Of a DNA stretch of 47,606 bases, positions 1-47,165 are shown piece after piece. Within the stretch, counting starts at the first letter, position 1. Every line of letters begins with the position of its first letter. A program made the translations under genes and the position numbers. Source of the DNA: a virus; IMG/VR virus record IMGVR_UViG_3300044445_000049, positions 1 through 47,606 of that record. One strand, 5' to 3'. The notes under the pieces are model-generated. The model was not told the origin of the DNA, searched no databases, and worked only from the letters and a program-made list of their open reading frames with translations.

Positions 1-127
1 GCCGGGCCTTGAGGGCGAGCATGCTCGACGTGATGTCGTCGGCCTCTTCCTCCTCGTCGGCCGCTGCCAGGCGCCCCGCTAGCTCCTTGAGGCGCGCCTC
101 AACGTCTGCGAGCTCGGCGCCGGCGCC
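1..127. repeat. Exact 127-bp terminal overlap with 47480-47606 (circular closure of the contig)
   Basis: Direct comparison: gccgggccttgagggcgagcatgctcgacg...gagctcggcgccggcgcc occurs at both ends. Confidence 0.95.
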
Positions 128-1303
128 TTGGTCGTCCACACGCCGCACGTAGCGCGTCTCCGGGGCGTCCCCTCGCGCGGCCAGGTAGCGGGCCACGACT
201 TCGCCGTCGAGTTTCCGGGCGGACATGTAGGTCTTGCGCGGGCAGGTCACCCCGCTCGAGGCGGCGGAGCACCCGTAGTTGACGTGCCCCTCCGGGTTGC
301 GCTCGGTGACGGACGTCCTGCGCGGGTAGAGCGGTCGGTCGCACCCGGAGCAGTAGGCAATCTTCGACAGGAGGCCGGAGGCGCGCCGCTTGACCTCGCC
401 GCGACGGTTGGCGTCGAAGCGCTCACGAAGGGCGAGCATCGCCTCGAGGGAGAGGATGGGCTCGAACGGTGCGAGGGGCTGGCCGTCTTCGCCGTAGAGC
501 GGGGCCCCGTTGTGCGAGACGCGGCCGAGGAGGTGCTCGGAGGTCATCGTCGATCGCACGCGGGAGCCGTTCCACCTTCCGCGGTCGAGGCCCTCGTCGG
601 GCTCCCCGCCCAGCCGTGCGATACGGGCCGCCGAGCGAGCCTTCGCGACCCCTCGGGCGTTGAGTTCGTCGGCGAGCTTGACGGTGGACTCGCCCGCGAT
701 GAGGCGCTCGGCCAACTCACGGACGATGTCGGCCTCCTCCGGGATGACGTGGAGGCCACGGCCTACGGGGAGGGTCGGGTGCGGGCCGGTGCGGTAGCCG
801 AAGGGCGGGACGCCGTGCCCCGCGTTGCGGCCCTGACGTCGCATGCGGTCGCGCGCCGCGGTCTGGCGGCTCGAGACGAGGTCGCGCTCGCGCTTCGCCA
901 TGTCGGCCGCGAACGCTGCGCGGAGCTGCCAGTCGGGCTGTGTGGACTCGATGCCCTCTCGAGCGGCGATGAAGGTGGCCGGGTGCGGGGTCTTGGCGCG
1001 GGCGTCGACGACCTCGATGAGCGCGGCGAGGGTCTTGATACCCATGCGGCTCCATCGGTCGTAGGCGTAGACGGCGAGGATATCGGCGTCCCCGCGGGCC
1101 CACAGGTCGTAGGCCGCCTGGGCGTTCTCGCGCTCCTTGCCGCCCGACTTGCCGTTGTCGGTGAAGGTGGCGACGACGTCCCAGCCCGCTCGCTCGGCGA
1201 TGACCGAGAGGTCGTCGGTCTGGCCGGTGATCGAGGTGGAGCGCGCGGACTCCTTCGAGAGGCGGACGTAGAGCACGGCGCGGAGGGGCTTGGGATCGGT
1301 CAT
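1..1303 (-). CDS. int: Large serine recombinase (integrase). First 1303 nt of a 1509-nt ORF that leaves the left edge and continues at 47479->47274 on the circular map.
   Basis: ATG at 1303. MTDPKPLRAVLYVRLSKESARSTSITGQ (catalytic Ser motif), recombinase domain, Cys-rich zinc ribbon CSGCDRPLY..YGCSAASSGVTCP, coiled coil. High-GC3 frame. Missing from the ORF track only because no stop lies on this side of the window. Confidence 0.9.
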   Translation of the reverse strand, partial: MTDPKPLRAVLYVRLSKESARSTSITGQTDDLSVIAERAGWDVVATFTDNGKSGGKERENAQAAYDLWARGDADILAVYAYDRWSRMGIKTLAALIEVVDARAKTPHPATFIAAREGIESTQPDWQLRAAFAADMAKRERDLVSSRQTAARDRMRRQGRNAGHGVPPFGYRTGPHPTLPVGRGLHVIPEEADIVRELAERLIAGESTVKLADELNARGVAKARSAARIARLGGEPDEGLDRGRWNGSRVRSTMTSEHLLGRVSHNGAPLYGEDGQPLAPFEPILSLEAMLALRERFDANRRGEVKRRASGLLSKIAYCSGCDRPLYPRRTSVTERNPEGHVNYGCSAASSGVTCPRKTYMSARKLDGEVVARYLAARGDAPETRYVRRVDDQGAGAELADVEARLKELAGRLAAADEEEEADDITSSMLALKAR

Positions 1304-1306
1304 GGA

Positions 1307-1336
1307 GAGGAGACCGCCCCGCGTGGGGAGGTTGCC
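1307..1336 (-). promoter_or_regulatory. Class II promoter-like motif (copy 1), directly before int
   Basis: Minus strand: AGGCAAC-CTCCCCACGCGG-GGCGGTCTCCTCTCC-ATG. GTCT lies 7 nt before the ATG and there is no SD. Confidence 0.6.
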
Positions 1337-1342
1337 TAGAGG

Positions 1343-1396
1343 AGTAACGCCCTTAGTTGTCATCTAAGAACTTTGGCGGACGCTAAAGGCGTAAGT
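1343..1396. other. Candidate attP: imperfect dyad in a low-GC patch upstream of int
   Basis: AGTAACGCCCTTAG (1343-1356) versus the reverse complement of CTAAAGGCGTAAGT (1383-1396) matches at 11 of 14 positions. The centre is near 1369/1370. Confidence 0.25.
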
Positions 1397-1867: not shown

Positions 1868-2149
1868 TCAGCGTCGACGGTCGCGGGCGTCCTCGTTGGT
1901 CCAAACGCCCTCACGGAAGAGGAGGATTGTGACCACGACGGAGACGCGAGCGTCCCAGACGACGCAGAGGTCGCCGAGGACGTATCGCCCGAGTCCCCGA
2001 TGCGGGTGCGAAGACCCTTTCAGGAGCACTTCTGCTACCTCCCGCTCGCTGACGTGACGCTCCCGCATGACGTTTCGGGCATGGAAGGAGATTCGCGCCT
2101 CGAGGAGGTCTTCCTTCGTAATGCGCGGGTTCGGCTTGGGGTCGGTCAT
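1868..2149 (-). CDS. DUF4258-like putative toxin (93 aa), leaderless
   Basis: MTDPKPNPRITKEDLLEARISFHARNVMRERHVSEREVAEVLLKG resembles the H..R...R.IS..EV signature. The ATG at 2149 lies 7 nt after the TACCGT -10 element. Confidence 0.55.
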   Translation of the reverse strand: MTDPKPNPRITKEDLLEARISFHARNVMRERHVSEREVAEVLLKGSSHPHRGLGRYVLGDLCVVWDARVSVVVTILLFREGVWTNEDARDRRR

Positions 2150-2156
2150 AGCCACC

Positions 2157-2185
2157 ACGGTACTCGCGCAAGAATGTTCGCGCAA
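2157..2185 (-). promoter_or_regulatory. Class I sigma-A-like promoter (copy d)
   Basis: Minus strand: TTGCGC-N17-TACCGT with TGCGCGAG immediately 5' of the -10. Confidence 0.6.
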
Positions 2186-2202
2186 GAACACTCGCGCAAG
2201 GA
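2161..2202. repeat. 3 x 14-bp tandem repeat (nnyTCGCGCAAGrA) overlapping promoter d
   Basis: tactcgcgcaagaa / tgttcgcgcaagaa / cactcgcgcaagga. Confidence 0.8.
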
Positions 2203-2210
2203 GGAACGCG

Positions 2211-2596: not shown

Positions 2597-3262
2597 TCAC
2601 GCGATGGCCTTGGCGAGCACGCGCTCGACCGTCGTCTTACCGACGCCGACCTCCTCGGCAATCTGGCGAAGGCTCTTGCGCTGCGCACGGAGGGCGACGA
2701 TGCGCTCGTCGCGAGGCAAGGGTGCGGGCTCCGGCCCGGCGTCCGGCCCCGGCTCGACGACCTCGTCGGCGGCCCAGAGCCGTCCCGTCGTGATGGCCCA
2801 GGGGTCGGCGGGGGCATCACCGGCTTTGACGGTCAGGGGCGGGGCGATGATGAGACGGGCGAGGGTGTGCGTCGTCAGCAGCACCGCCACAGGGGCGAGT
2901 CCCGCGATGACCGCGCCGAGTCCCGCTCGAGGGTCGCCCTGTCCCGCGTCCCAGGCGTGGGCGGCGTTGGCGGCCACGGAGAGCGCCGTGAAGAGGGACA
3001 GCGAGAGCCAGGCCATGCGGGCGCTCTCGCCCCGAGCGCGGAAGACCAGGGCCGCGAGCGTGTAGACGAGGATCGCGCCGTCGATGGTGACGGGGACGGC
3101 CCAGGACAGCCAGGTCGGCACAGCGGCCCACGCGGCGACCGCGACGAGCCCCGCATAGGAGAGGAGGAAGGACGCCAGAGCGAGGAGGATGGTGATGCCG
3201 ACGGCCAGGTACAGGACACCGCGCGAGTCCGGGTTGATCCGGGCGGGGGAGTGAGCGGTCAT
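2597..3262 (-). CDS. Polytopic membrane protein (DUF2637-like) with a C-terminal helix-turn-helix
   Basis: ATG at 3262 (ATGA overlap with the upstream gene). About 4 TM helices. C-terminal HTH: RKSLRQIAEEVGVGKTTVERVLAKA. Confidence 0.65.
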   Translation of the reverse strand: MTAHSPARINPDSRGVLYLAVGITILLALASFLLSYAGLVAVAAWAAVPTWLSWAVPVTIDGAILVYTLAALVFRARGESARMAWLSLSLFTALSVAANAAHAWDAGQGDPRAGLGAVIAGLAPVAVLLTTHTLARLIIAPPLTVKAGDAPADPWAITTGRLWAADEVVEPGPDAGPEPAPLPRDERIVALRAQRKSLRQIAEEVGVGKTTVERVLAKAIA

Positions 3263-3719: not shown

Positions 3720-3748
3720 ACGGTACTCGCGCAAACATTTGAGCGCAA
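3720..3748 (-). promoter_or_regulatory. Class I sigma-A-like promoter (copy a)
   Basis: Minus strand: CTTGCGCTCAAATGTTTGCGCGAGTACCGT (TTGCGC-N17-TACCGT). Confidence 0.6.
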
Positions 3749-3763
3749 GTGATGGGACGCCAG

Positions 3764-3800: not shown

Positions 3801-4043
3801 CTACGAGCGTCGGCCGCGGGGACGCCAGGCGGGGTCGTGCTTGCGAGCGAGGAAGGACGCCACGCTCTCGCGAGGCCCGTGGGGCTTGGGGCGCACGGAC
3901 TCGGGCGGGAACTCGCGCTGGTAGTAGCGGCCCGTCGATCGCGTGTGGAAGCCGACTGTTACGGCGTCGGTGTGGCCGTCGATGCTCACGACATAGCCCT
4001 CGCCGAGGGGCGTGAGGACGTGGTGGGACACCGGGACAGTCAC
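3801..4043 (-). CDS. Hypothetical small beta-rich protein (80 aa), coupled to the sigma gene
   Basis: GTG at 4043 overlaps the sigma stop (GTGA). MTVPVSHHVLTPLGEGYVVSIDGHTDAVTVGF.. Confidence 0.6.
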   Translation of the reverse strand: MTVPVSHHVLTPLGEGYVVSIDGHTDAVTVGFHTRSTGRYYQREFPPESVRPKPHGPRESVASFLARKHDPAWRPRGRRS

Positions 4044-4873
4044 TCGGACGCCTCCGGGACGTTGAGGGCCTTGCGCATGGTCGACAGGCCCTCGGCGCGG
4101 ATGCGCTGCACCTTCGAGCGCGAGTATCCGCGGCGGTGGGCAATCTCGGCGTCGGGGATCGGGTCATACTCGGTGAAGCCGTAGGCGTCCCGGATGACGT
4201 CCCCGGTGATGACGTCGACGGCCGCGAAGGCCTTGGCGACGTCGGCACGCTGCTCGACGGTCGAGTAGCCGCGCTCAACCGTGAGTGAAGAGGTGCGGGG
4301 CTCGGAGTCGAAGTTGTTGCCCGCGCCGTGCGGGGCGTATGCGCGGTCGTTCGCCTTCTCGAGCCCTCCGCCGATCAGGTCGTCGAGGCTCTGCGCGTCG
4401 AGGGCTTCCTTGACTGCGCGGAAAGTCTCCCGGGTCATGCCGAGCTCGAGAGCCTTCGCCTCGGCGTCACCGTCGGGGCCCGCCTCGCGCCGCGCCTGGG
4501 TGAAGCGCTGCCGCGTGCGAGCCGGGATGGCGAAGCCGCCGACGAGGTGGTGCTCGTCGGCGACGCGGAGGGCGGCCTTGGGGAGCCGGAATGCCACGCG
4601 CTCGCCCGTCTGGCACTCGTGAACCGCCTCGGCGAACGCGAGGAGAACGTTGGCGCGGGTTTCGAGGGCGTCCACATGGCCGGCGGCTCGCGCGTACTCC
4701 TGCTCGACGAGCGCGCGGAGGCCGTGGGCGTACTGCATGAGGAGCGTCTCGTAGGCGCCGAGGTCGCCATCCTGAGCCGCGCGAATGAGGCGCGTCTCTT
4801 CGGCGTGCTCGAGCTTCTCCCGGGTGACGAGCTTGTCATCGAAGATCGCGCGGAGCGTCGTGTGAGCGGTCAT
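4040..4873 (-). CDS. Sigma-70-family RNA polymerase sigma factor (277 aa; regions 2, 3 and 4)
   Basis: Region 2-like EETRLIRAAQDGDLGAYETLLMQYAHGLRALV. Region 4.2 HTH IAHRRGYSRSKVQRIRAEGLSTMRKAL. SD AAGAGGGA before the ATG at 4873. Confidence 0.8.
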   Translation of the reverse strand: MTAHTTLRAIFDDKLVTREKLEHAEETRLIRAAQDGDLGAYETLLMQYAHGLRALVEQEYARAAGHVDALETRANVLLAFAEAVHECQTGERVAFRLPKAALRVADEHHLVGGFAIPARTRQRFTQARREAGPDGDAEAKALELGMTRETFRAVKEALDAQSLDDLIGGGLEKANDRAYAPHGAGNNFDSEPRTSSLTVERGYSTVEQRADVAKAFAAVDVITGDVIRDAYGFTEYDPIPDAEIAHRRGYSRSKVQRIRAEGLSTMRKALNVPEASE

Positions 4874-5094: not shown

Positions 5095-5219
5095 ATGCTC
5101 GGCCCTGGGGATGGGCGAGGTGGGTTCCTCGTGTTAGGGAGGAGGTGCCGAGGACGGGTAGTCCACTAGCAGATACACCCTATCGCGTTTGAACCTTTGC
5201 GCGAGTACCTTCGCGCGTG

Positions 5220-8418: not shown

Positions 8419-10917
8419 TCAGATGATGGCGTCGAGGTCGGCGCCGTTGATTTCCGTTGCAGAGGAGACCGCCTGGCCGCCCACGGCTGCCCGCGCAATT
8501 TCTGCGTCTTGGTCGCCCTCCTTCACGGCGTCCGTTCGGCGGGCACGGCGGACGCCTTCGAAGGCCACCCCCGAGGCCGTCTTGACCTTGACGAGCTTTC
8601 GCTCCTCGAGGGCGCCGAAGAAGGTGCGCCGGGTCCAGCGCTCGCGCTGCGGGAGGTTCTCCTCGTCGGCCCACTCGAGGTAGGCCTCGAAGAGGGTTTT
8701 GCCCGAGACGCGACCCGCCTCGCCGTCAGCGACGAAGATGCCGGGCAGGAAGCCCGCGAGGGCGTCGGACGTCTCGCGGTACTCCTTCGTGTGAGCGCTG
8801 ACGGTCTCGGGGTCGCGGAGGCCGTGGGCGTACCACTCGATCGCGCCGGCCACGGCCCAGGCGAAAATGCCCTCGGCTTCGGCGAGGAGCTTGTCGCCGA
8901 GACGGCCGTCTCGCTCGTGCGGCGCGAAGAAGCGTTCCCAGGGGATGAACTTGACGCGGCGCCAGAGTCCGTCATCCTGTCCGCGGAACTCGGGCTTGGC
9001 GTTGGTCGCCAGCATGAGGAGGAAGGTGGGGCGGAACTCGAAGAACTCCTTACGCATGAAGCGCGCGGAGATAAGGTCGCGGCCGGTGACGCGCTTGAGT
9101 ACGGCCTCGGCCATGCGCTTGCCCGCCTCGCCCTCCGAGGCCATGACGAGTCGCGCACCCTTGAGAGCTGCGAGGTCGTTGGGGATGCCACCGGAGGGCC
9201 GCTCCTCAAAAGTCGAGAAGGGCGTAGTGGTGGTCAGCTCCCGGAAGACCTCCGTGAGCGTGTCCGTGAAGACCGACTTGCCGTTAGCTCCGCCGCCCCA
9301 GTGGACCGCGAAGCACTGCTCGGCCGTCGAGCCGGTGATGCCGTACCCGACGAGACGCCGCATGTAGGCGGGGAGGTCGGGGTAGGCGGGGAAGACCTCG
9401 TCGAGGAACGCCTCCCAGCGCGGCGCGGTCGCGCGGGGGTTGTAGTCGAGCTCGACGCGGCGGGTGAGGAGAAGGTTGGGGTCGTGCGGCCGTAGTTCGC
9501 CCGTCTTGAGGTTGACGACGCCGTTGCGGCACGCGAGGAGTTCGGGGTGCTTGTCGAAGTCCTCGAGCGAGGCGGGGACGCCCCGGACGGCTTGCAGCTC
9601 GCGGAGCATGGAGTCGATGCCGCGGGTGGTCTGGACGTGCTGCGAGTAGCGCTGGAACCGCCCGGCGCGCTTCTTGTTGCGCTCGCGCTCCTCCTCGGTC
9701 GCCCCCTCGGTCGCGGCCTTGGACGCCTCGAGGGCCAGCTTCTTGACGATGTCGGCGACCTCTTGCGCGTGCGTGCGCGTGGCCTGTCGGTCGTCCTTAC
9801 GCCAGACGCCGGAGTCCAGGAGGAGGAAGCCGACCTCTTCGGTGTACTTGACGCCGGAGCCGATGCTCTCGACGTAGTCGCGGAGGTAGCGGGCGCCGCC
9901 GAGGTCGGAGAGGGCGTAGACGCGCTCGTCCCAGGCGAGGAGCGAAGCCTCGCGAGAGGCGACGGGGCGGGCATCCGAGATAGCCCGGATGACGTCGCGA
10001 GCGAAGCCGGGGCCGCTCTGGGCGCGCCAGTCGGTCAGGTCGAGGCCGTCGGCCAGGTCGAGCACGCGCACGCGGACACCTCTAGCAACGAGGCCCTCGG
10101 CCAGGGTCGCCGAGAAGCGTCGGCCGGCGGGGTCGCCGTCACCCGCGACGATGGCCTCACGGTCGCCGAGCCATCCGGCCACCTCGTCGACAATCGCGGG
10201 GTTGCCCGCGTGCGAGGCCCCGGCGATGCCGATGGTGTCGTAGCCGAGAGCGGCGCCGGTCAGAGCGTCGCCCGGGCCCTCACAGATGAGCACCTCGGGC
10301 CAGCCGGAGGAGCCGGGGAAGAAGCCCGTCTTGGCCCACGAGCCGCCCTCGGGCGACTTGGGACCGAGCCAGCGGACGGCCGCGTCAGCCTCGAGCGCAC
10401 GGGCCTGGAAGTTGCGAGCGACGCCGTCGGGATCGCGGAACGGGACGACGAGGCGAGGGCCGCCACCGATGTCGTCGACGTAGCCGAGGCCAAGACGCTC
10501 GAGGTCGGCTGTCGTGAGTCCGAAGCGGTCGACGGCGTAGCGCGCGGCTTCGTAGAGGGACTCGGGGACGGACTCGGGGTCATGCGGGCCAGTCAGGGCC
10601 TCGGCGTACCCGTCGAGACGCACGGCAAGTTCCGCGATGGCGGCCGGTGTAGCCGGGAGTGCCACGGATGCCTTCTTCGTCGCCGGGATCGAGTCGTCGA
10701 CACGCATGCGGGCGAGGTCGCGCATGGTCATGCCGACCTTCTCGACGACGGCCGGGGTCTGGCATCCGGCGCGGCACTTGAGGAGGACGTTGCCGGTCGT
10801 GCCGATCGTGACGCGGAGGGAGTTGTGGGAGTCGGCGTGAGCGGGGCACGGGGCGAGGTAGCCGTCGGCGGTCTCCTCGACGCCGTCGAACTTGGAGAGG
10901 AAGTCGGTGAGGGTCAT
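8419..10917 (-). CDS. Bifunctional DNA primase / P4-D5-type helicase (832 aa)
   Basis: N-terminal zinc finger CPAHADSHNSLRV..CRAGC, Toprim region (EGPGDAL, DGDPAG), Walker A GGGANGKS. Confidence 0.9.
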   Translation of the reverse strand: MTLTDFLSKFDGVEETADGYLAPCPAHADSHNSLRVTIGTTGNVLLKCRAGCQTPAVVEKVGMTMRDLARMRVDDSIPATKKASVALPATPAAIAELAVRLDGYAEALTGPHDPESVPESLYEAARYAVDRFGLTTADLERLGLGYVDDIGGGPRLVVPFRDPDGVARNFQARALEADAAVRWLGPKSPEGGSWAKTGFFPGSSGWPEVLICEGPGDALTGAALGYDTIGIAGASHAGNPAIVDEVAGWLGDREAIVAGDGDPAGRRFSATLAEGLVARGVRVRVLDLADGLDLTDWRAQSGPGFARDVIRAISDARPVASREASLLAWDERVYALSDLGGARYLRDYVESIGSGVKYTEEVGFLLLDSGVWRKDDRQATRTHAQEVADIVKKLALEASKAATEGATEEERERNKKRAGRFQRYSQHVQTTRGIDSMLRELQAVRGVPASLEDFDKHPELLACRNGVVNLKTGELRPHDPNLLLTRRVELDYNPRATAPRWEAFLDEVFPAYPDLPAYMRRLVGYGITGSTAEQCFAVHWGGGANGKSVFTDTLTEVFRELTTTTPFSTFEERPSGGIPNDLAALKGARLVMASEGEAGKRMAEAVLKRVTGRDLISARFMRKEFFEFRPTFLLMLATNAKPEFRGQDDGLWRRVKFIPWERFFAPHERDGRLGDKLLAEAEGIFAWAVAGAIEWYAHGLRDPETVSAHTKEYRETSDALAGFLPGIFVADGEAGRVSGKTLFEAYLEWADEENLPQRERWTRRTFFGALEERKLVKVKTASGVAFEGVRRARRTDAVKEGDQDAEIARAAVGGQAVSSATEINGADLDAII
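8462..8491 (-). promoter_or_regulatory. Class II promoter-like motif (copy 2), embedded in the last 25 codons of the primase-helicase gene
   Basis: Minus strand: GGGCAGC-CGTGGGCGGCCA-GGCGGTCTCCTCTGC. Confidence 0.55.
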
Positions 10918-10947: not shown

Positions 10948-10977
10948 GAGGAGACCGCCTGGGCGGCCGAGAGCGCC
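10948..10977 (-). promoter_or_regulatory. Class II promoter-like motif (copy 3), upstream of the primase-helicase gene
   Basis: Minus strand: AGGCGCT-CTCGGCCGCCCA-GGCGGTCTCCTCTTC. The -35 half is weaker than in other copies. Confidence 0.5.
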
Positions 10978-11360
10978 TACGTGCGGAGCTGCTGCTCGAG
11001 GACGAGAAGGTCGCCCTCGGCTTGCTCGAGGCGGAGGAGGACGTCGGCGAACGTCGAGAGCGGCATGACGGCGTAGACGTCGGCGACGCTCTTGCGGGGG
11101 CGTTTGATGAAGGCGACGGGCAGACGATCCGCGCCGACGCGCTTGGCCTGGACTACCGCCCCGTCGACGCCGTCGCGGAGAGCCGTGGCGAGGTCGCGGT
11201 AGTTCTTCGCCTGGCCGACGAAGGGGTCGATGCCGTGGACGTCGCCGACGTCGAGGGCGCCGGTCTGGGCGACCCGGCGGGCGGGGATGCCGCGTTCATT
11301 TAGATAGCGGACGATCGCGCTCTCGTGCGCGGTGCCTTTCCGCTTAGCCGCGCTCGACAC
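10977..11360 (-). CDS. Holliday-junction resolvase-like PD-(D/E)XK nuclease (127 aa)
   Basis: SSAAKRKGTAHESAIVRYLNERG...DVGDVHG...GQAKN. GTG at 11360 after GGAGG. Confidence 0.65.
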   Translation of the reverse strand: MSSAAKRKGTAHESAIVRYLNERGIPARRVAQTGALDVGDVHGIDPFVGQAKNYRDLATALRDGVDGAVVQAKRVGADRLPVAFIKRPRKSVADVYAVMPLSTFADVLLRLEQAEGDLLVLEQQLRT

Positions 11361-13278: not shown

Positions 13279-13308
13279 GAGGAGACCGCCTGGGGGTGGC
13301 GGGCTGCC
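13279..13308 (-). promoter_or_regulatory. Class II promoter-like motif (copy 4)
   Basis: Minus strand: GGGCAGC-CCGCCACCCCCA-GGCGGTCTCCTCTGTGTCCCA. Confidence 0.6.
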
Positions 13309-13321
13309 CATAACACACGAA

Positions 13322-16530: not shown

Positions 16531-17871
16531 TCAGTCGAGGAAGGTGGAGAGGATGGCTTCGGCCAGGAGCGGCGGGACCGCGTTGCCGATTTGGAGGAAT
16601 TGGGAGGTCTTGGAGCCCTGGAAGGGGAAGGGCCGGGGGTACGTCTGTAGGGCGGCGGCTTCGGCGGCGGTCATTCGCCGCGCGTCTGTGGGTCGGGCGT
16701 CTCCTCCGCCAGAGGTGGCAGGGCTCGGGCGGTTATGTACGTCCGCGGAGCCCTGGCCGGTGACGGCGTGCGCGGGGTGCCAGACCGACCGCGGGGCGTT
16801 GACCGTGGAGGATGTCCCCGCACCCGTCATGAACCGGTAGCTATTCCCGTGTTCGTCCACGGCGGGCCAGCTATCGGGGTAGGTCTGTAGCGCTGCGGCT
16901 TCCTCGACGGTGGCGCGGTAGGCGCCGGTCCCCTTCCGGTCGGAGTAGCGCTCGTGCGCTTCGGCGCCGAGGCGGCGGACGTCATCGGCGTTGATCCGAT
17001 GCCCTGGCGGCCACTCGGGGAATCGCTGCCACGAGCGCGCCTTCTCGGTGACGGTTTGCGCGGGGTCGGATGCCGGGCGGAGGTCGCGGGCGCGGTAGGC
17101 GGTGCCCTCGACGACGACTTCCTCCCGACCGTCGGAGAGGCGCGGGAAGCCGACGAGGTCGGCGGGCGGCCAGCCCAGGGCCTCGGCCATGGAGACCCAC
17201 TTGAGGACTCCGTCGTCGAGGCGCCTGGCGTCGCGCGGGTAGTAGCGGGAGTGCGTCGGCGTCGGGAGCTTGGCGACGCCTCCGTCGCGGCGAGCGATGA
17301 GGATGGCTCGTCGACGGGTCTGCGGCACGCCGTACTGCTCGGCGTTGAGGATGCCGGTGACGACCGAGTAGCCCATCGCCCGCATGACGTCGGCGTAGGC
17401 CTCCCAGACGGGGAGGACTGACGGCACCTGCTCGAGCGCGACGTAGCGGGGGCGGTCGCGGCGAATGTAGGCGAGCGGCACGAGGACGAGTGCGGTGCGC
17501 GGGTCGAGGCCCTGAGTCGCGCGGTTGAGGAGGAAGGGGTCAGCCCAGACCCGAGAGCGGACGAGGCCGAGCACCTCGTCGAGGGCCTTGCGCCCGGCTC
17601 CCTTGCCAGCGGCCGAGAAGGTCTGGCACGGAGGCGAGGCGATGAGGACGTCGTAGGCGTCCAGGACGGCCAGCGCGGCGGCCGAGAGGAAGGTCTTGTT
17701 GAGGAGGCCGTCCCAGACGTCGCGGAAGATGGTGGAGAAACCTGCGGCGGTGCGCGTTGCGACGGCCTCGTCCATGATTTCGACGCCGTGGTCGGCGATG
17801 CCGAGGCGGTGAGCCGCAACGCCCCAGCCGGAACCGGCGAAGAGGTCGAGGGCGGTGAGGTTCGGGGTCAT
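16531..17871 (-). CDS. DNA (cytosine-5)-methyltransferase (446 aa), leaderless
   Basis: Motif I DLFAGSGWG, motif IV SPPCQTFS, motif VIII QYGVPQTRRR, motif X GNAVPPLLAEAI. The ATG at 17871 lies 3 nt after the class II block. The N-terminal extension in the ORF track is rejected. Confidence 0.9.
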   Translation of the reverse strand: MTPNLTALDLFAGSGWGVAAHRLGIADHGVEIMDEAVATRTAAGFSTIFRDVWDGLLNKTFLSAAALAVLDAYDVLIASPPCQTFSAAGKGAGRKALDEVLGLVRSRVWADPFLLNRATQGLDPRTALVLVPLAYIRRDRPRYVALEQVPSVLPVWEAYADVMRAMGYSVVTGILNAEQYGVPQTRRRAILIARRDGGVAKLPTPTHSRYYPRDARRLDDGVLKWVSMAEALGWPPADLVGFPRLSDGREEVVVEGTAYRARDLRPASDPAQTVTEKARSWQRFPEWPPGHRINADDVRRLGAEAHERYSDRKGTGAYRATVEEAAALQTYPDSWPAVDEHGNSYRFMTGAGTSSTVNAPRSVWHPAHAVTGQGSADVHNRPSPATSGGGDARPTDARRMTAAEAAALQTYPRPFPFQGSKTSQFLQIGNAVPPLLAEAILSTFLD

Positions 17872-17874
17872 GCA

Positions 17875-17904
17875 GAGGAGACCGCCAGGCTGCCCGCGAG
17901 TGCC
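17875..17904 (-). promoter_or_regulatory. Class II promoter-like motif (copy 5)
   Basis: Minus strand: GGGCACT-CGCGGGCAGCCT-GGCGGTCTCCTCTGC-ATG. Confidence 0.6.
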
Positions 17905-17969
17905 CAAAGAAATTTGAGGCGGAGGCTGTCCACGCGATTTGCTCGATGTCAAGCCCTACGCATGAAGTT

Positions 17970-19161: not shown

Positions 19162-19541
19162 GCGGGGTTGTCCTTCGGGACGAGGAGAGTGAAGGGTGCG
19201 AGGTGCGCGGACGCGGCGGGGGCGTTCTCGTCGGATGGCGTCTCGGCGTGGATGAGTGGCCCGCCGTCAGCGCGGATGCGCCAGAGGCCGCCCAGGACGT
19301 CGAGGTAGACGCCCGCGGCCGTCGGGAGCGGCTCGGGGAGCGCCTCGACGACGTAGCGGTCGTCGCCGGGGAAGATGCCGAGCATGACCTCGTCATCCGG
19401 GCGGAGGTCGATGGCGACGAGCTCGCCGTCGTAGTCGACGCGGATGCGGCCGATGAACTCGACGGAGGTGCCCGGTCGGGTGATCTTGACGTGTGCCGCT
19501 CGGCCAGTCGGAAGGGCCGGGCTAGCCCACACGGCGCTCAC
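19158..19541 (-). CDS. Hypothetical protein carrying the PLPTAxGxY module (127 aa)
   Basis: GTGA-coupled to the exonuclease stop. ..EPLPTAAGVYLDVLGGLWRI.. Confidence 0.6.
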   Translation of the reverse strand: MSAVWASPALPTGRAAHVKITRPGTSVEFIGRIRVDYDGELVAIDLRPDDEVMLGIFPGDDRYVVEALPEPLPTAAGVYLDVLGGLWRIRADGGPLIHAETPSDENAPAASAHLAPFTLLVPKDNPA

Positions 19542-20410: not shown

Positions 20411-20440
20411 GAGGAGACCGCCTAGGAGGGCAGGGGTGCC
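20411..20440 (-). promoter_or_regulatory. Class II promoter-like motif (copy 6)
   Basis: Minus strand: GGGCACC-CCTGCCCTCCTA-GGCGGTCTCCTCTGTGTCCCA. Confidence 0.6.
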
Positions 20441-20490
20441 CGCCCCGGGGCGGGCGGATCGCCGCGGGGTGGGCCCTGGACGCGCAAGAT

Positions 20491-20589
20491 GACGAAATGA
20501 CGATTTGAACGTCATTTCCTATTACTTGCTCTAGAGAGCTACAAACTAAGAAGGGGAATGGAGAATGACGTTTGTTCCGTCATTTCGTC
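20491..20589. promoter_or_regulatory. Operator/promoter module A: two palindromes flanking an AT-rich core
   Basis: GAAATGACG-atttgaa-CGTCATTTC (20494-20518) and GAATGACG-tttgttc-CGTCATTT (20563-20585). The outer 12-mers GACGAAATGACG / CGTCATTTCGTC are perfect inverted repeats. This is one of the lowest-GC stretches of the window. Confidence 0.7.
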
Positions 20590-20600
20590 ATCCCGCTAGG

Positions 20601-21290: not shown

Positions 21291-21956
21291 CTACTTTCGG
21301 AGGTTTTCGAGAAGAACTTCGACACGGGAACGGAGGCCCTCGGGCGTCCCGTCGTTCTCGATCGTGACGTCGACCGCGTAGTCGTCGAGGGCGTGCTCGG
21401 TCACCTCGTCGAGGTCGGGGACGGGCGCGCCGGGTCGGTCGACGCGCACGATGACGCCTCCGAAGCTGCGGATGAGGTCAGCCTCGTCGGGCATGCGGAC
21501 GTCGGTGAAGACGAGTCGCTCACCCCAGATGAAGTCCATGGCGTTCGTCTCGCGGTTGTACTGCCGGCGCGAGAGGGCCCGGGTGATGCGCTGTTGTGCG
21601 AGCGCAACCCACAGGCCACGGCCGCCGAGGAGGTCGTTGAGGCCCCACTTGACGCCGAGGTTATCGCGAACGGCCTGGCCGATGGCGACGAGCGAGCCGC
21701 GGACCTCGGGGAAGTCGTCCTTAGCGCGGTCGTAGCCGGCCTCCGCGACCGCACTTCGATAGCGCACGTCTGCGCGAAGGTCATCATCGAACTCGGATCG
21801 CACGTTGGCGACAATCGGGTTGATGGTCTCGACGAAGTCGCGGAGCGGGTCGGCGAAGGCGGCGGGCGTGTACCCGGCTAGCGTCGCCAGCTCGGCCGCG
21901 GTGCGGTCCTTGCCGTGGCGCTTGTAGCCGGTGAGACCGACGAGAGGGAGAGTCAC
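21291..21956 (-). CDS. Deoxynucleoside monophosphate kinase-like P-loop protein (221 aa)
   Basis: GTGA-coupled start at 21956. VTLPLVGLTGYKRHGKDRTAAEL (P-loop GxxGxxxxGKD). Confidence 0.65.
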   Translation of the reverse strand: MTLPLVGLTGYKRHGKDRTAAELATLAGYTPAAFADPLRDFVETINPIVANVRSEFDDDLRADVRYRSAVAEAGYDRAKDDFPEVRGSLVAIGQAVRDNLGVKWGLNDLLGGRGLWVALAQQRITRALSRRQYNRETNAMDFIWGERLVFTDVRMPDEADLIRSFGGVIVRVDRPGAPVPDLDEVTEHALDDYAVDVTIENDGTPEGLRSRVEVLLENLRK

Positions 21957-22309
21957 GCCTTCTCGACCTCGAGGTAGAGGCCGTAGAAGTAGTAGCCGTT
22001 GGACTCTTCCCACTCCTGATTGATCGTCAGGGCCGGGCCGGAGCCCGTCAGGAGGAAGACTCGAGCGCTTCGCGCGCCGTCGTATTCCTGGGAGACGGAC
22101 GTGATGACGTGCTCGGAGTCGACGATCGCGCCGAGGGTGGCGTCGCCCCAAGCGCAACAGTCGGATGCCCCGGTGACCTTGATGCGCGTGCCGTTGTCGA
22201 GGGTCAGGGTGTCGCCGTCGACGGAGACCGCCTTGTGGCCGACGACGAGGGGGCGGAGCGTGGAGGCGAGTTCGTCTTGCTCGATGCTCGAGCGGGTGGA
22301 AGTAGTCAT
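21953..22309 (-). CDS. Hypothetical protein (118 aa), leaderless
   Basis: The ATG at 22309 lies 3 nt after the class II block. Confidence 0.65.
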   Translation of the reverse strand: MTTSTRSSIEQDELASTLRPLVVGHKAVSVDGDTLTLDNGTRIKVTGASDCCAWGDATLGAIVDSEHVITSVSQEYDGARSARVFLLTGSGPALTINQEWEESNGYYFYGLYLEVEKA

Positions 22310-22312
22310 GCG

Positions 22313-22342
22313 GAGGAGACCGCCTCAATGCCCGGCGCTGCC
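22313..22342 (-). promoter_or_regulatory. Class II promoter-like motif (copy 7)
   Basis: Minus strand: GGGCAGC-GCCGGGCATTGA-GGCGGTCTCCTCCGC-ATG. Confidence 0.6.
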
Positions 22343-22351
22343 CGGGAACGA

Positions 22352-22385
22352 CGAAAAGCCCCCGCTCCGGTGAAGGAACGGGGGC
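22352..22385 (-). terminator. Rho-independent terminator closing the lysis cassette
   Basis: GCCCCCG...CGGGGGC followed by TTTTCG on the minus strand. Confidence 0.75.
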
Positions 22386-23554: not shown

Positions 23555-24337
23555 TCAGGCGGCCCGCTGCTCGAGCGCGTTGAGGCGCTCCTCGAGGTCC
23601 GTCAGACGTCGCGCCTGTTCTTGGATGGTGGGCAGGAGGGCCAGGGCGAGGAGCTCGTAGTGGACGCCGTCGGGCCGCTCACCCCCCTCGCCGTCGGGGG
23701 CGTAGACGACGAAGTCCTTGAGGCCGAGGTCGTCGAGTTGCTCGGCGATGACTCCGAGCTCCATGGCCGGGACGTAGTCCGGGCCGACGTAGTGCTCGTA
23801 GTCCGGGTCGTCCCGCTTTCGGACCTCGGCGATGTAGCGGTAGCGGACGAGTTCGATGGCGAGCACGGCGTCGACGTCCAGGTCGGCGGGCTCGATGTCT
23901 TGCTTGTAGCGCCGCGACGAGGTCGCCATCCCGAGCATGCCGTCGGCCGTCTGTAGCCAGGCGGTGACGCGGGTGCCGGTGATGTTGTTGGTGGGCGCGG
24001 CGGAGGCGAAGAGGTTGGTCACTCGCGCGGAGGGAGCCTTGACGTCCCCCGAGGCCGTGACGGTCGTGGGGGCGATGGCCCCGGGCGAGGCCAGGTCGGA
24101 GAACTTGGGCAGGGGCGCGACGGCTGCGGATGCCGCGGAGGCGGCGGCAGCGTCGGTCTGCGTGCGGGTGTAGTAGTCCTTCGCGAGGCGCTCGTTGATC
24201 GTGCGCTCGAGTTCAGACACGACGGGGAGCAACGACGCGGCGACCGAGGGGCCCAGCTCGCGAACGGTTCGGCGAAGGTCCGCGAGTTGGGCCGGGAGGG
24301 CGCCCTCGTCGGCGGGGATGGAGGCTGTGATGCCCAC
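23555..24337 (-). CDS. Tail fibre protein with a C-terminal intramolecular-chaperone (peptidase S74-like) domain
   Basis: GTG at 24337 after AAGGAG-cccc. ..GMATSSRRYKQDIEPADLDVDAVLAIELVRYRY.. is the classic autoproteolytic chaperone signature. Confidence 0.8.
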   Translation of the reverse strand: MGITASIPADEGALPAQLADLRRTVRELGPSVAASLLPVVSELERTINERLAKDYYTRTQTDAAAASAASAAVAPLPKFSDLASPGAIAPTTVTASGDVKAPSARVTNLFASAAPTNNITGTRVTAWLQTADGMLGMATSSRRYKQDIEPADLDVDAVLAIELVRYRYIAEVRKRDDPDYEHYVGPDYVPAMELGVIAEQLDDLGLKDFVVYAPDGEGGERPDGVHYELLALALLPTIQEQARRLTDLEERLNALEQRAA

Positions 24338-36231: not shown

Positions 36232-36318
36232 GGGGCCTCCTGTGGGAATGGGAAGGCCCCGGCGACCCGCGTGAAAGCGAGTGGCCGAGGCCAAGAGGGA
36301 AGGGGTTACGATCGCGGC

Positions 36319-36537
36319 ATGAGCCTTGATCCGCGGCCCGGTGCGCTACCCGGGAGGGTGGACGTTGCGACGGAGTTGGTCTACCTCCGTGCGCGTGCGG
36401 AGCCGCCCTGGGAGCGCGTCAAGCGCGACGGCGTCGACGTGACAACTCGACCCGACCTCTGGACGCCGTATCAGCGTCAGAGACGGGTGGAGTTTGAGGA
36501 GCGCGTCGAGTCGTATCGCGCCGAGGGCCTGATCTAG
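36319..36537 (+). CDS. Hypothetical protein (72 aa). The only credible plus-strand gene; leaderless arrangement.
   Basis: TACGAT-N6-ATG. MSLDPRPGALPGRVDVATELVYLRARAEPPWERVKRDG.. GC3 is lower than in neighbouring genes. No competing minus-strand ORF. Confidence 0.5.
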   Translation: MSLDPRPGALPGRVDVATELVYLRARAEPPWERVKRDGVDVTTRPDLWTPYQRQRRVEFEERVESYRAEGLI

Positions 36538-42010: not shown

Positions 42011-42040
42011 AAGAAGACCGCCTAGCTGCCCACGGGAGGT
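42011..42040 (-). promoter_or_regulatory. Degenerate class II motif (copy 8) upstream of the tRNA cluster
   Basis: Minus strand: GGGCAGCTA-GGCGGTCTTCTTACA. No GGCAnC at the canonical -35 spacing. Confidence 0.3.
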
Positions 42041-42152: not shown

Positions 42153-42971
42153 TCACGAGGCGGGGACGAGCTTGGTCAACGTGCTGCCCTCGCCGATGTA
42201 ATCGCGGATCGAGGCCTCAGTCTCACTTCGGACGTTGCCTCCGGTTGCGGGGTAGGAGTGCCAGAGGCCGTTCTCGCGGACGAAGATGCGAGCACCGATG
42301 CGCCCCGATCGAATCTGGCGGATGGTCGCGGGGCCGGCGTAGAGACCGGTCTCCGTCGGGAGCGGGACGGGCGCGGGCTCGAGGAGCTCGAAGTGGTAGG
42401 AGCTTGCCCCGTACTTCTGCGTGCCTACGCCCTCAGGGGCGATGTGCGTGACGCGGCCCGTGGCGAGTTCCTGCGTCACGACGCCGATGACGAACTCGGC
42501 CTTGAGGTGGGAGTGCGTCTTGCTCGTGAGGCGGACCTTGGCGCCCTTCTTGGCTGTGGCGGGGAAGGCCGTGACCGGGGCGTAGAAGGCGGAGTTGTAG
42601 AGGGCGCGCTCGAGGATGGGGTCGAGGGGCATGGCGATTTCCTTTGCGGATTCGATGGCGAAGGAGGAGAAGTGAGTGTGGAGGGTGTGAATCGCGGCGA
42701 CGCGGGCACGGGCAACCCGCTCGCGGCGTTCCCGGGCGAGCCGGTCCACGCGCGCTCGAGCTGCCCGAATGCGGCGCTGCTCGGCGACGGTGAACTCGAG
42801 GAGCTCACGACGGCCCCAGTCGGGACCGAAGGCGACGATGACGTCCCCGGCGTGCCGCACGGTGCGCGGGGTGTAGCCCCAGTCCTCGCGGAACTCGCGA
42901 CGAGCGCGCGGGTAGGCGGAGGCCAGCGTCTCGCCAGGGTGCTGCTCGATCGTCGTGTGGTCGCGGGTCAC
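42153..42971 (-). CDS. Hypothetical protein (272 aa) carrying the PLPTxxGxY module
   Basis: GTGA-coupled start at 42971. ..PVPLPTETGLYAGPATIRQI.. Confidence 0.7.
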   Translation of the reverse strand: MTRDHTTIEQHPGETLASAYPRARREFREDWGYTPRTVRHAGDVIVAFGPDWGRRELLEFTVAEQRRIRAARARVDRLARERRERVARARVAAIHTLHTHFSSFAIESAKEIAMPLDPILERALYNSAFYAPVTAFPATAKKGAKVRLTSKTHSHLKAEFVIGVVTQELATGRVTHIAPEGVGTQKYGASSYHFELLEPAPVPLPTETGLYAGPATIRQIRSGRIGARIFVRENGLWHSYPATGGNVRSETEASIRDYIGEGSTLTKLVPAS

Positions 42972-43348
42972 GCGGCGTCCTCCCACTCGGTCTCGACCTC
43001 ATCGGGTGCGGCCGGGAGCGCGTCCCAGACGTTCTCGAAGAGGTCGAGAATGTCGGCGTAGGCCACGCCGCGGACGCGGGCGTAGTCGATCGCGTCGGCG
43101 AGCATCGCTCGAGCGCCGTGCTTGCCGAGGCCTTCGATGCTGGCGTCCTCGGGCTCCCAGTCGTACGGCATGCGCCACGAGGCGAGGAGGCGGTCCAGCG
43201 GCTCGGAGGCCATGGAGCCGGGCTTCGGGCGCTTGGGGCCATCGTCGTCGGCTCCGCCGCCGTTACCGACGCCGTCGACGGGAGGGGCAGGGGGAGGCGG
43301 GAGCGTGGGCGTCCCGGTGTTGGAGGGTGCGGGTTGCATCATGGTCAT
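42968..43348 (-). CDS. Hypothetical acidic protein (126 aa), leaderless
   Basis: The ATG at 43348 lies 3 nt after the class II block. Confidence 0.65.
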   Translation of the reverse strand: MTMMQPAPSNTGTPTLPPPPAPPVDGVGNGGGADDDGPKRPKPGSMASEPLDRLLASWRMPYDWEPEDASIEGLGKHGARAMLADAIDYARVRGVAYADILDLFENVWDALPAAPDEVETEWEDAA

Positions 43349-43351
43349 GCA

Positions 43352-43381
43352 GAGGAGACCGCCAGCGGTGGTAGTCCTGCC
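43352..43381 (-). promoter_or_regulatory. Class II promoter-like motif (copy 9)
   Basis: Minus strand: GGGCAGG-ACTACCACCGCT-GGCGGTCTCCTCTGC-ATG. Confidence 0.6.
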
Positions 43382-43393
43382 CAGAGCAAACGA

Positions 43394-43425
43394 AAAAGGC
43401 CCCTTCCGTGAGGAGGGGGCCTTTT
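43394..43425. terminator. Bidirectional rho-independent terminator
   Basis: AAAAGGCCCCT...GGGGGCCTTTT, with A- and T-tracts on both sides. Confidence 0.75.
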
Positions 43426-43441: not shown

Positions 43442-43660
43442 TCAGGCGGCCTCGTCGAGGACGCGGAGGTCAGCGCCAAGAGCGTGCATCATCATCGAGC
43501 GCTCGCGGAGGGCGATGGTCTTGGTCATGGAGGGGGCGGAGCCCGCGACGCTCGTCCACTCGTTGCCCTCGTCGTCGAGGAAGGTCTCGACCAGGGCGCC
43601 CGAACCGAAGAGAGACGGGGCGGAGGAGGTGAGGCGGAGGGCGGGGGCTGCGTTCGTCAT
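43442..43660 (-). CDS. Hypothetical protein (72 aa), leaderless
   Basis: The ATG at 43660 lies 6 nt after the TATGCT -10. Confidence 0.55.
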   Translation of the reverse strand: MTNAAPALRLTSSAPSLFGSGALVETFLDDEGNEWTSVAGSAPSMTKTIALRERSMMMHALGADLRVLDEAA

Positions 43661-43666
43661 GGTTAC

Positions 43667-43695
43667 AGCATACTCGCGCACACATTTGAGCGCAA
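43667..43695 (-). promoter_or_regulatory. Class I sigma-A-like promoter (copy b)
   Basis: Minus strand: CTTGCGCTCAAATGTGTGCGCGAGTATGCT. Confidence 0.6.
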
Positions 43696-43757: not shown

Positions 43758-44000
43758 TCAGAGCGAGTCGAGGGCCGTCTCCCGCGCTTCGAGGACCGCG
43801 CGGTAGGCGGCCGTCAACTCGTCCGGGTTCTCGGCGTCCTCGTCCAGAGGGAAGCATCCGGGGCATCCGGGCTCCTCGGGAAGGCGGAGGGTGTCGAGGA
43901 CGTGCTCGATGGCCTCGCGCTCCGTCGCCTCCTCGTAGGACTGGCGGACGTCGGCGACGACGAGAGCGATTTGAGCGGAGGTGGGTGCCGTGGAGGTCAT
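43758..44000 (-). CDS. Hypothetical acidic protein (80 aa), leaderless
   Basis: The ATG at 44000 lies 6 nt after the TAGAGT -10. Confidence 0.6.
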   Translation of the reverse strand: MTSTAPTSAQIALVVADVRQSYEEATEREAIEHVLDTLRLPEEPGCPGCFPLDEDAENPDELTAAYRAVLEARETALDSL

Positions 44001-44006
44001 GCGTCG

Positions 44007-44035
44007 ACTCTACTCGCGCGCACATTTGAGCGCAA
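44007..44035 (-). promoter_or_regulatory. Class I sigma-A-like promoter (copy c)
   Basis: Minus strand: GTTGCGCTCAAATGTGCGCGCGAGTAGAGT. Confidence 0.6.
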
Positions 44036-45537: not shown

Positions 45538-45725
45538 GCGGCCCTCCTAAGGGCGGTCATCGGGACGGGGCGGGTGTTCTCGTCAAGGGCGCGGTCGAGG
45601 CCGACCTCGCTCGAGCGGGCGAGGACGCGAGACGCCCAGCCAACGAGGGCGGGGTCGTTCTCGCTCAGGTGGGCCAGGAGGACACGGCGGCTCTGCTCGC
45701 GCTCGTGACGGTGGGCGGGGCTCAC
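45534..45725 (-). CDS. Hypothetical protein (63 aa)
   Basis: GTGA-coupled. High GC3. Confidence 0.5.
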   Translation of the reverse strand: MSPAHRHEREQSRRVLLAHLSENDPALVGWASRVLARSSEVGLDRALDENTRPVPMTALRRAA

Positions 45726-47025: not shown

Positions 47026-47055
47026 AAGGAGACCGCCTCGGCGGGCCGGGTTGCC
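47026..47055 (-). promoter_or_regulatory. Class II promoter-like motif (copy 10)
   Basis: Minus strand: GGGCAAC-CCGGCCCGCCGA-GGCGGTCTCCTTCTC. Confidence 0.55.
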
Positions 47056-47065
47056 CGTCGAGGAT

Positions 47066-47165
47066 GACGGAATGACGATTTGAACGTCATTCCCTATTAC
47101 TTGCTTGAGGAGAGCACACACTAAGTAGAGGAATGGGAAATGACGTTTCGAAACGTCATTCCGTC
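47066..47165. promoter_or_regulatory. Operator/promoter module B (paralogue of module A)
   Basis: GGAATGACG-atttgaa-CGTCATTCC (47069-47093) and the perfect 22-bp palindrome AATGACGTTTCGAAACGTCATT (47139-47160). Outer 12-mers GACGGAATGACG / CGTCATTCCGTC are perfect inverted repeats. Confidence 0.7.

Follow-up and report, generated by a model that had tools for sequence, protein, structure and literature searches.

Phage sigma cascades, such as those of SPO1 (gp28 and gp33/34) and T4 (gp55), pair a phage sigma factor with a repeated, phage-specific consensus that stands before replication and other non-early gene blocks. Group 3 sigma factors of bacteria read promoters in which about 14-15 nt separate a short -35 element from a long, G-rich extended -10 element, e.g., TAAA-N15-GCCGATAA for FliA/sigma-28 and GTTT-N15-16-GGGTAT for SigF/SigB, and transcription starts about 7 nt downstream. 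Here we analyse a 47,606-nt stretch of viral DNA (IMG/VR record IMGVR_UViG_3300044445_000049, positions 1 to 47,606; "the window" below), a complete 47.6-kb Joint Genome Institute (JGI) contig that represents a Microbacterium siphophage genome. It carries a repeated bipartite element that resembles both systems and that we call the class II promoter, its downstream half being a conserved 12-nt block, GGCGGTCTCCTC. We consider it likely that the element is a promoter read by a sigma factor of the phage, and that four genes, those for the serine integrase (int), a C5 cytosine DNA methyltransferase (MTase), orf118 and orf126, are leaderless, with transcription predicted to start on the A of their ATG.

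Leaderless mRNAs are well described in Mycobacterium tuberculosis (Cortes et al. 2013, PMC3898074), where they start 6-7 nt past the -10 element, lack a Shine-Dalgarno (SD) sequence, carry a 5' AUG or GUG and have a purine at +1, a pyrimidine at -1 and T at +2. That pattern is matched exactly by a second set of sites in the window, TAnnnT-N6/7-ATG, which we call class I. The four focal genes are alike in their start geometry but use a phage-specific promoter that is not TAnnnT, and they are known here from sequence alone. Among Microbacterium phages, a 2020 survey (Jacobs-Sera et al. 2020, PMC7302621) gives repeated motifs for clusters EC and EI (18-30-bp repeats), EF (start-associated sequences, SAS, and extended SAS, ESAS) and EG (inverted repeats), and none for Cluster EH or Zeta1847. 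These motifs, like ours, are short, conserved, oriented and placed in small gaps before starts, but the class II element differs in being bipartite and in lying either 0 or at least 20 nt from the start. The word "promoter" is absent from the survey, which also identified no repressor for this temperate group, and our literature searches on the motif, on leaderless genes in Microbacterium phages and on regulation in phiMiGM15 found nothing specific.

The window is approximately 70% G+C and almost all of its genes lie on the minus strand, in the order small genes, HNH and terminase genes, structural genes, lysis genes, nucleotide/DNA metabolism genes and, at the window end, the serine integrase. 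Its closest relative is phiMiGM15 (~85% identity across ~60% of its length), and more distant relatives are found in Cluster EH (Floof, Barnstormer, Caron and GardenState) and in Zetavirus (Zeta1847 and Cen1621). Our comparative set comprised 64 bipartite sites from these eight genomes, and a smaller aligned set held 45 sites from six of them.

An earlier note on this DNA had claimed that the four genes begin exactly 3 nt after the class II block, with a constant GTCT-N7-A spacing and no SD, and that the block acts as a -10-type element with the A of the ATG as the transcription start. Read off the minus strand, all four sites are as claimed, with GGCGGTCTCCTC-NNN-ATG at int (GGCGGTCTCCTCtccATG, A at 1303), the MTase (GGCGGTCTCCTCtgcATG, A at 17871), orf118 (GGCGGTCTCCTCcgcATG, A at 22309) and orf126 (GGCGGTCTCCTCtgcATG, A at 43348), and the spacing is the same in each. 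The promoters, genes and adjoining terminators are as follows.

17869-17905, minus strand: class II promoter and MTase start (-35 GGGCAC at 17900-17905, N13, block at 17875-17886, tgc, ATG at 17869-17871)
16531-17871, minus strand: MTase coding sequence (CDS), 446 aa from ATG 17871 (Pfam PF00145, E=1.9e-33)
1301-1337, minus strand: class II promoter and serine-integrase start (-35 AGGCAA at 1332-1337, block at 1307-1318, tcc, ATG at 1301-1303)
2-1303, minus strand: serine integrase CDS, cut at the window end (434 of ~502 aa; PF00239, PF07508, PF13408)
22307-22343, minus strand: class II promoter and orf118 start (-35 GGGCAG at 22338-22343, block at 22313-22324, cgc, ATG at 22307-22309)
22358-22385, minus strand: intrinsic terminator, an 11-pair stem followed by TTTTCGTCGT (-29.4 kcal/mol), which ends the structural/lysis run directly upstream of the orf118 promoter
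21953-22309, minus strand: orf118 CDS (DUF7448; Pfam PF24240, E=3.9e-11)
43346-43382, minus strand: class II promoter and orf126 start (-35 GGGCAG at 43377-43382, block at 43352-43363, tgc, ATG at 43346-43348)
43393-43425, minus strand: terminator hairpin and T-run (core 43400-43415, -24.3 kcal/mol), just upstream of the orf126 promoter
42968-43348, minus strand: orf126 CDS, which opens the run leading into the HNH, terminase and structural genes

The block is not a lone motif. At every intergenic copy in the window GGGCA[G/C/A] lies exactly 13 nt upstream of it, giving the bipartite element (T)GGGCA-N-N13-GGCGGTCTCCTC. The consensus has (T)GGGCA at -35 to -30, a non-conserved stretch of 14 nt and then A-GGCGGTCTCCTC, with the block spanning -15 to -4 and the predicted +1 being a purine four bases past it, i.e., (T)GGGCA-N14-GGCGGTCTCCTC-N3-R(+1) as a compact consensus for the regulon. 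If the A of the ATG is taken as +1, GGGCA falls at -34 to -30 and GGTCTC at -12 to -7, which is normal promoter geometry. With up to one mismatch allowed, the 12-mer has 12 matches against 1.57 expected, a number that none of 100 shuffles attained, and eight exact copies lie on the gene strand. An ATG stands at exactly +3 in four of the eight bipartite sites of the window, for which the chance is ~1e-7 by our own arithmetic from base composition (p(ATG) ~0.007 per position on the gene strand). Strong terminator hairpins immediately precede the copies at 22324, 43363 and 13290, and a hairpin upstream of int was predicted by eye.

The claim that these genes lack an SD also held: an SD core (GGAG, GAGG, AGGA, AAGG, GGGA or GGTG) occurs at -16 to -4 in none of the four, compared with 52 of 79 roughly called genes. 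The sequence upstream of the four starts reads GGTCTCCTCNNN. We had also scored SDs by duplex energy, which gave spuriously favourable values at the four sites owing to GGCGG (which pairs weakly with the anti-SD) or a distant GAGG, and we replaced it with the positional core-motif test.

The remaining class II promoters in the window precede genes with SDs of their own.

47026-47056, minus strand: leadered class II promoter, GGGCAA-N13-GGCGGTCTCCTT, with an SD-led ATG ~28 nt past the predicted +1
20411-20441, minus strand: leadered class II promoter of the exonuclease gene; the predicted +1 is the G of GTCCC, and taggagg precedes the start
13279-13309, minus strand: leadered class II promoter of the recombination-directionality-factor gene, with a strong hairpin before it (-33.2 kcal/mol)
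10948-10978, minus strand: leadered class II promoter of the primase gene, with an exact block and a weaker -35, AGGCGC
8462-8492, minus strand: leadered class II promoter inside the primase 3' end, with an SD-led ATG 54 nt downstream; its position is kept in 8/8 phages

At these copies (47037, 20422, 13290, 10959 and 8473) the leaders are ~25-60 nt, and the phiMiGM15 site orthologous to the primase promoter has the -35 AGGCAC. Since the block also lies upstream of SD-bearing genes, it does not act via the start codon.

Comparison across the eight phages points the same way. The predicted +1 is a purine at 63 of the 64 sites and the -1 base a pyrimidine at all 64; the 45-site set has a purine at +1 in 44 cases and T at +2 in 31. 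The combination C(-1)/purine(+1)/T(+2) is the signature of mapped mycobacterial start sites (PMC3898074). The -35 element is the most constant part, its GGGCA being G in 42/45, G in 42/45, G in 45/45, C in 45/45 and A in 45/45, followed by one variable base and N13. Start codons fall into two groups: an ATG lies exactly at +1 at 18/64 sites (four each in the window, phiMiGM15 and Zeta1847, and six in Cen1621), an SD-led start lies 20-129 nt downstream at 39/64, and leaders of 1-19 nt occur at 0/64, so that a leader is either absent or at least 20 nt long. ATG is the codon at each of the 18 fused starts; the leadered starts comprise 31 ATG and eight GTG. Eight of the ten fused ATGs of Zeta1847 and Cen1621 are the starts annotated in GenBank (Zeta1847 19692, 23656, 38955 and 45937; Cen1621 18122, 22502, 42837 and 47056).

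The block varies from phage to phage. It is GGCGGTCTCCTC in the window and phiMiGM15, GGCGGTCTTCTC in GardenState and GGCGCACTCCTC in Floof; Caron and Barnstormer have GGCGCTCTCCTC mixed with GGCGGTCTCCTC; and Zeta1847 (GGCGTCCTCTCC) and Cen1621 (GGCGGCCTCTCC) each carry an additional base ahead of the start. M. foliorum NRRL B-24224 was the isolation host of both Floof and Cen1621, and that their blocks differ despite the same host strain argues for a specificity factor encoded by the phage.

A candidate for such a factor is present in the window.

4040-4873, minus strand: divergent sigma-70-family factor of 277 aa with sigma2, sigma3 and sigma4 (phrog_351 "RNA polymerase sigma factor", E=2.2e-6)

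A Pfam scan of the 277-aa protein gave no match at E<=0.01 and, at a laxer cut-off, a weak Sigma70_r4 only (E=0.026). When a profile was built from 33 homologues, its match to FliA (1rp3) had E=6e-9 and took in nearly the full length (profile positions 39-258), with further matches to SigA, RpoS and a SigF-like "sigma factor" chain (1l0o). Among the 33 homologues, Sigma70_r4 is found in 30 and Sigma70_r2 in five; the region 2.1 pattern LIRAAQDGDLGAYETLLMQYAHGLRALV and the region 4.2 pattern IPDAEIAHRRGYSRSKVQRIRAEGL are both present. All seven relatives have an orthologue at the corresponding genome position, downstream of the DNA polymerase gene, under the names "RNA polymerase sigma factor" (GardenState and Zeta1847), "DNA binding protein" (Floof, Barnstormer, Caron and Cen1621) and "hypothetical protein" (phiMiGM15), so every phage with the motif has the gene. 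The sigma4 helix-turn-helix is near-invariant across the family, like the -35 GGGCA, and sigma2 and the -10 block both vary.

The system is like those of SPO1 and T4 in having a phage sigma and a repeated consensus, but here the factor is a full sigma2-sigma3-sigma4 protein, group-3-like (FliA and SigF are its best matches), the phage is a temperate actinophage, and some promoters are fused to starts. The class II element shares with group 3 promoters the short -35, the ~14-15-nt spacer, the long G-rich extended -10 (GGCGGTCT vs GCCGATAA) and the start ~7 nt downstream; its sequence differs (GGGCA / GGCGGTCTCCTC), and its conservation reaches -4 (CTCCTC). Together, the -35 partner, the upstream terminators, the phage sigma, the start-site signature and the two groups of leader lengths support what the earlier note had proposed for the block and the A of the ATG.

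Orthologous genes also illustrate the two arrangements. phiMiGM15 has eight bipartite copies, four of them fused to an ATG: those of int, the MTase (24076-24093), the orf126 orthologue (45605-45622) and the deoxynucleoside monophosphate (dNMP) kinase. The dNMP kinase ATG is at +1 in phiMiGM15 (L001, 19526-19543), Zeta1847 and Cen1621, and the gene is SD-led in Caron, Barnstormer and Floof, which makes it a natural case of one gene alternating between a leaderless and an SD-led form. In the window the kinase gene (21291-21956) is internal, with a GTG start and the SD-like GAGAAGG, because orf118 sits between the class II promoter and the kinase (orf118 and kinase together 21291-22309, minus strand). 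For int, the geometry in Caron and Barnstormer (TACGAT-N6-ATG) and in GardenState (TACTAT-N6-ATG) is leaderless at the annotated starts, so the serine integrase of this phage group looks leaderless under either promoter class.

The start of int also lies next to the site at which these phages integrate.

1366-1376, minus strand: common core of the phage attachment site (attP), CCAAAGTTCTT, ~30 nt upstream of the int -35

The prophage/host junctions in two records map to this core (13418-13428 in L030, ~2930 in L031), and its location explains why the DNA upstream of int is conserved. In a Microbacterium testaceum lysogen the junction of phage and host DNA falls at window 1366-1376. Related prophages occur in Microbacterium testaceum and in two other Microbacterium genomes, integrated in the 3' end of rpmE (L31), where phage DNA re-supplies the last codons, KNFGGR*. 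This shows that the phage group is truly temperate, a point left open by the 2020 survey. The window integrase is 94% identical to a 502-aa M. testaceum recombinase, and in three prophages int still has both promoter elements, -35 and block, and begins at +1 or adjacent to it (with ATG in L031 and L033, with GTG one base further in L032). As a separate observation, the int promoter of L032 (Microbacterium sp. IEGM 1404 prophage, ~2935-3003) has lost 1 nt upstream of the -35 and gained 1 nt behind the block; the annotated start is accordingly a GTG lying 4 nt past the block, and the total spacing between attP and start codon is as in the other copies of this arrangement.

Two other explanations concern how and where translation begins. 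It is very unlikely that the true starts lie upstream (TTG 17952 for the MTase, ATG 1363 for int) and that the block is coding sequence (…GGLLC/S-M…), a scenario the earlier note had named as one that would refute it. Both upstream frames are open in the window, the int extension has its ATG in the window, phiMiGM15 and L031, and a sigma-A-like TTGACT-N18-CAAAGT-N6-ATG can be drawn upstream of 1363. However, the MTase extension (MTSSKSRGQ) has low third-position G+C and an in-frame stop codon in phiMiGM15, and the two phages have unrelated DNA upstream of the -35. From ATG 17871 the protein reads MTPNLTALDLFAGSGWG (MTPNLTAL), and its FAGSG motif begins at residue 11, so no start further downstream would leave that motif intact. 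orf118 has an in-frame TGA 15 nt upstream of its ATG (DUF7448 begins at residue 22), and the open frame of orf126 offers no start codon before ATG 43348. The 20-codon int extension (MTTKGVTPLG) coincides with the P' arm of attP, its peptide has a scrambled frame in L032 and a GTG start in L033, and the short N-terminus, MTDPKPLRAVLYVRLS (MTDPKPLRAV), is that of both the NCBI-annotated prophage integrases and the curated GardenState integrase (MSPDKPLRAVGYVRLS, MSPDKPLRAV). The 12-mer is, moreover, clearly non-coding where it lies 25-60 nt upstream of other genes. We give least credence to the idea that the block is an RNA-level, start-associated translation signal, like the SAS of Cluster K and Cluster EF. 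It is highly conserved and stands immediately before four start codons, and SAS motifs are known in other Microbacterium phage clusters (PMC7302621), but those lie at the ribosome-binding position and are complementary to the 16S rRNA 3' end (PMC7302621). The class II block is pyrimidine-rich (CTCCTC), of the same sense as the anti-SD rather than its complement, and 39/64 copies are 20-129 nt from starts with their own SD.

The other two explanations concern what binds the DNA. If the 12-mer were an operator, the four genes would be translated from read-through RNA by SD-independent internal initiation. The model would be the stoperator of Cluster A mycobacteriophages, an asymmetric 13-bp repressor site scattered in operons that requires neither a -35 partner nor a fixed distance to a start. 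Our motif is likewise asymmetric and ~12 bp long; its 8-9 copies are mostly intergenic and almost all point the same way, and the phage group is temperate with no repressor reported (PMC7302621). No repressor was identified among the window proteins in Pfam and PHROGs scans. We nevertheless regard an operator as improbable, as it predicts neither the fixed -35-like partner at N13, nor the pyrimidine(-1)/purine(+1)/T(+2) signature, nor leaders of 0 or at least 20 nt with ATG-only fused starts, and the terminators upstream of three copies would leave little read-through RNA. Somewhat less improbable, though still unlikely, is that a host alternative sigma factor (ECF-like, i.e., of the extracytoplasmic function type, or group 3) reads the sites, leaving other targets to the phage sigma-like protein; the genes would be leaderless in this case too. 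GGGCA-N17/18-GTC is loosely like ECF-type promoters (GGAAC-N16/17-CGTC), and the link to the phage sigma is associative only. Against a host factor are the different blocks on one host strain (Floof GGCGCACTCCTC, Cen1621 GGCGGCCTCTCC), the sigma gene at the same genome position in every motif-bearing phage, and the parallel invariance of sigma4 and the -35.

Several points weigh against a class II promoter read by the phage sigma with starts on the A of the ATG. The 64 sites include orthologous promoters with common ancestry and so do not count as independent. The phage sigma (4040-4873) is probably the reader of the class II promoters, by association only, and upstream of its own gene there is only an imperfect class-I-like element, GCGCGCATATTC. 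The -10 region, GGTCTC, is unlike TAnnnT. In phiMiGM15 a TATACT hexamer lies ~45 nt upstream of the MTase ATG, so tandem promoters with a leadered, SD-less transcript are possible there. The int upstream frame, with its ATG 1363 start, is open in the window, phiMiGM15 and L031, and a minor long form of the protein might be made alongside the short one. Finally, the leaderless status of int, the MTase, orf118 and orf126 is a strong prediction resting on sequence, by which alone a leader of 1-4 nt looks the same as one of 0 nt.

If a class II promoter read by the phage sigma is nonetheless accepted, expression could proceed as follows. Host sigma-A would drive several small genes (44000, 43660 and 2149) as leaderless mRNAs from class I promoters, and the phage sigma would then guide the host core RNA polymerase to class II promoters. 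At int, the MTase, orf118 and orf126, transcription would begin at the A of the ATG, giving mRNAs that start with AUG and that could be translated efficiently without an SD, as is common in Actinobacteria; the other class II copies would yield ordinary SD-carrying leaders of ~25-60 nt. Read-through RNA over the four ATGs would offer ribosomes no entry signal, so expression of these genes would depend on their own promoters, a dependence that the terminators upstream of orf118 and orf126 and the predicted hairpin upstream of int would fit. The suggestion that int and the methylase are controlled "purely at transcription initiation" goes beyond the evidence.

We put forward a wider interpretation only tentatively: the fusion of promoter to start codon may be an interchangeable expression module, in which a group-3-like sigma would start transcripts on the AUG of int, the MTase and the first genes of two operons, proteins would be made only from sigma-started transcripts, and orthologues would flip between leaderless and SD-led forms. 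An integrase bound at attP or attL/R could then also gate its own leaderless transcript from int, whose promoter is ~30 nt from the attP core and stays with int in the prophage.

The class I sites mentioned above are host sigma-A-type promoters, three of which are fused to starts on the minus strand.

43998-44035, minus strand: class I promoter and start, TTGCGC-N17-TAGAGT-N6-ATG, A at 44000
43658-43695, minus strand: class I promoter and start, TTGCGC-N17-TATGCT-N6-ATG, A at 43660
2147-2185, minus strand: class I promoter and start, TTGCGC-N17-TACCGT-N7-ATG, A at 2149
36307-36321, plus strand: weak candidate before a 72-aa open reading frame (ORF), TACGAT-N6-ATG, A at 36319, with a GGGAAGGGG run 13-14 nt upstream of the ATG

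TAnnnT-N6/7-ATG had been noted at all four positions. The three minus-strand sites are real and have, beyond what was claimed, a full TTGCGC-N17 -35; at 36319 the geometry stands, but as a promoter the site is poorly supported, with no recognisable -35 and no orthologue of its ORF in tblastn searches against seven relatives. The three minus-strand promoters share a common spacer, tcaaatgtgtGCGCGAG, which suggests an operator overlapping them. A generic sigma-70 consensus scan of selected regions found no promoters, since it is stringent enough to miss the class I TTGCGC/TAnnnT sites and does not recognise class II, and we used its output for terminators only. Also present are a leadered class I copy at 3720-3750 (minus strand), whose TACCGT is not followed by ATG, a class I copy, GCGCGAGTACCTT, at 5199-5211 (plus strand) in the gap upstream of the sigma gene, and three tandem TTGCGCGA(G/A) repeats at 2163-2205 (minus strand) upstream of the 2149 promoter.

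Some annotated starts in the relatives fall on promoter elements. In Zeta1847 (L028) those at 19283, 32643, 39686, 42383, 35401, 43223, 44118 and 45516 coincide with the TTG of a -35 TTGCGC or with a GTG within or beside the -10, and the true starts are likely the ATGs 6-7 nt past TAnnnT, as annotated in Cen1621. Similarly, the annotated start of the phiMiGM15 orf at 45572 is upstream of its promoter, on the -35 TTGCGC, and ATG 45620 is likely the true one.

A few candidate class II sites were rejected. The only exact plus-strand 12-mer (10867-10878) is inside the primase CDS, where the opposite strand encodes Glu-Glu-Thr-Ala and is kept as coding in relatives, so it is not regulatory. A one-mismatch copy at 28698 is inside the tape-measure gene and has no -35. 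The variant block GGCGGTCTTCTT at 42011-42022 (minus strand) has GGGCAG at N3 rather than N13; it sits between a 272-aa gene and the HNH/terminase genes. Transcription of the structural genes possibly comes from the 43363 promoter; the product of orf126, the first gene behind it, gave no protein-family matches. When IMG/VR viral contigs were scanned for GGCAS-N13-GGCGGTCTCCTC, 22 loci came up, each with a single match that looks like a chance occurrence within coding sequence, and no relatives were gained.

Just upstream of two class II promoters is an A+T-richer repeated module of ~100 bp (20490-20600 and 47065-47165, minus strand), with two inverted repeats (GAATGACG-N6/7-CGTCATT) followed by CGTCAT. 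Similar CGTCA(T/C) repeats occupy the corresponding places in phiMiGM15, Floof, Barnstormer, GardenState and Caron. The module could be a regulator-binding region or an origin.

Leaderless genes in Actinobacteria and phage sigma cascades are both already known, and what we describe is a well-supported further example rather than a new mechanism; the general view is unchanged, as leaderless translation is long established in Actinobacteria. Start codons that automatic and manual annotation have misplaced, as in phiMiGM15 and Zeta1847, can be corrected, and the promoter/sigma pair, attP and integrase are possible parts for Microbacterium genetics. For the temperate Cluster EH and Zetavirus-like Microbacterium phages, a group for which no repressor or promoters had been reported (PMC7302621), the phage sigma and its consensus provide a testable regulon.

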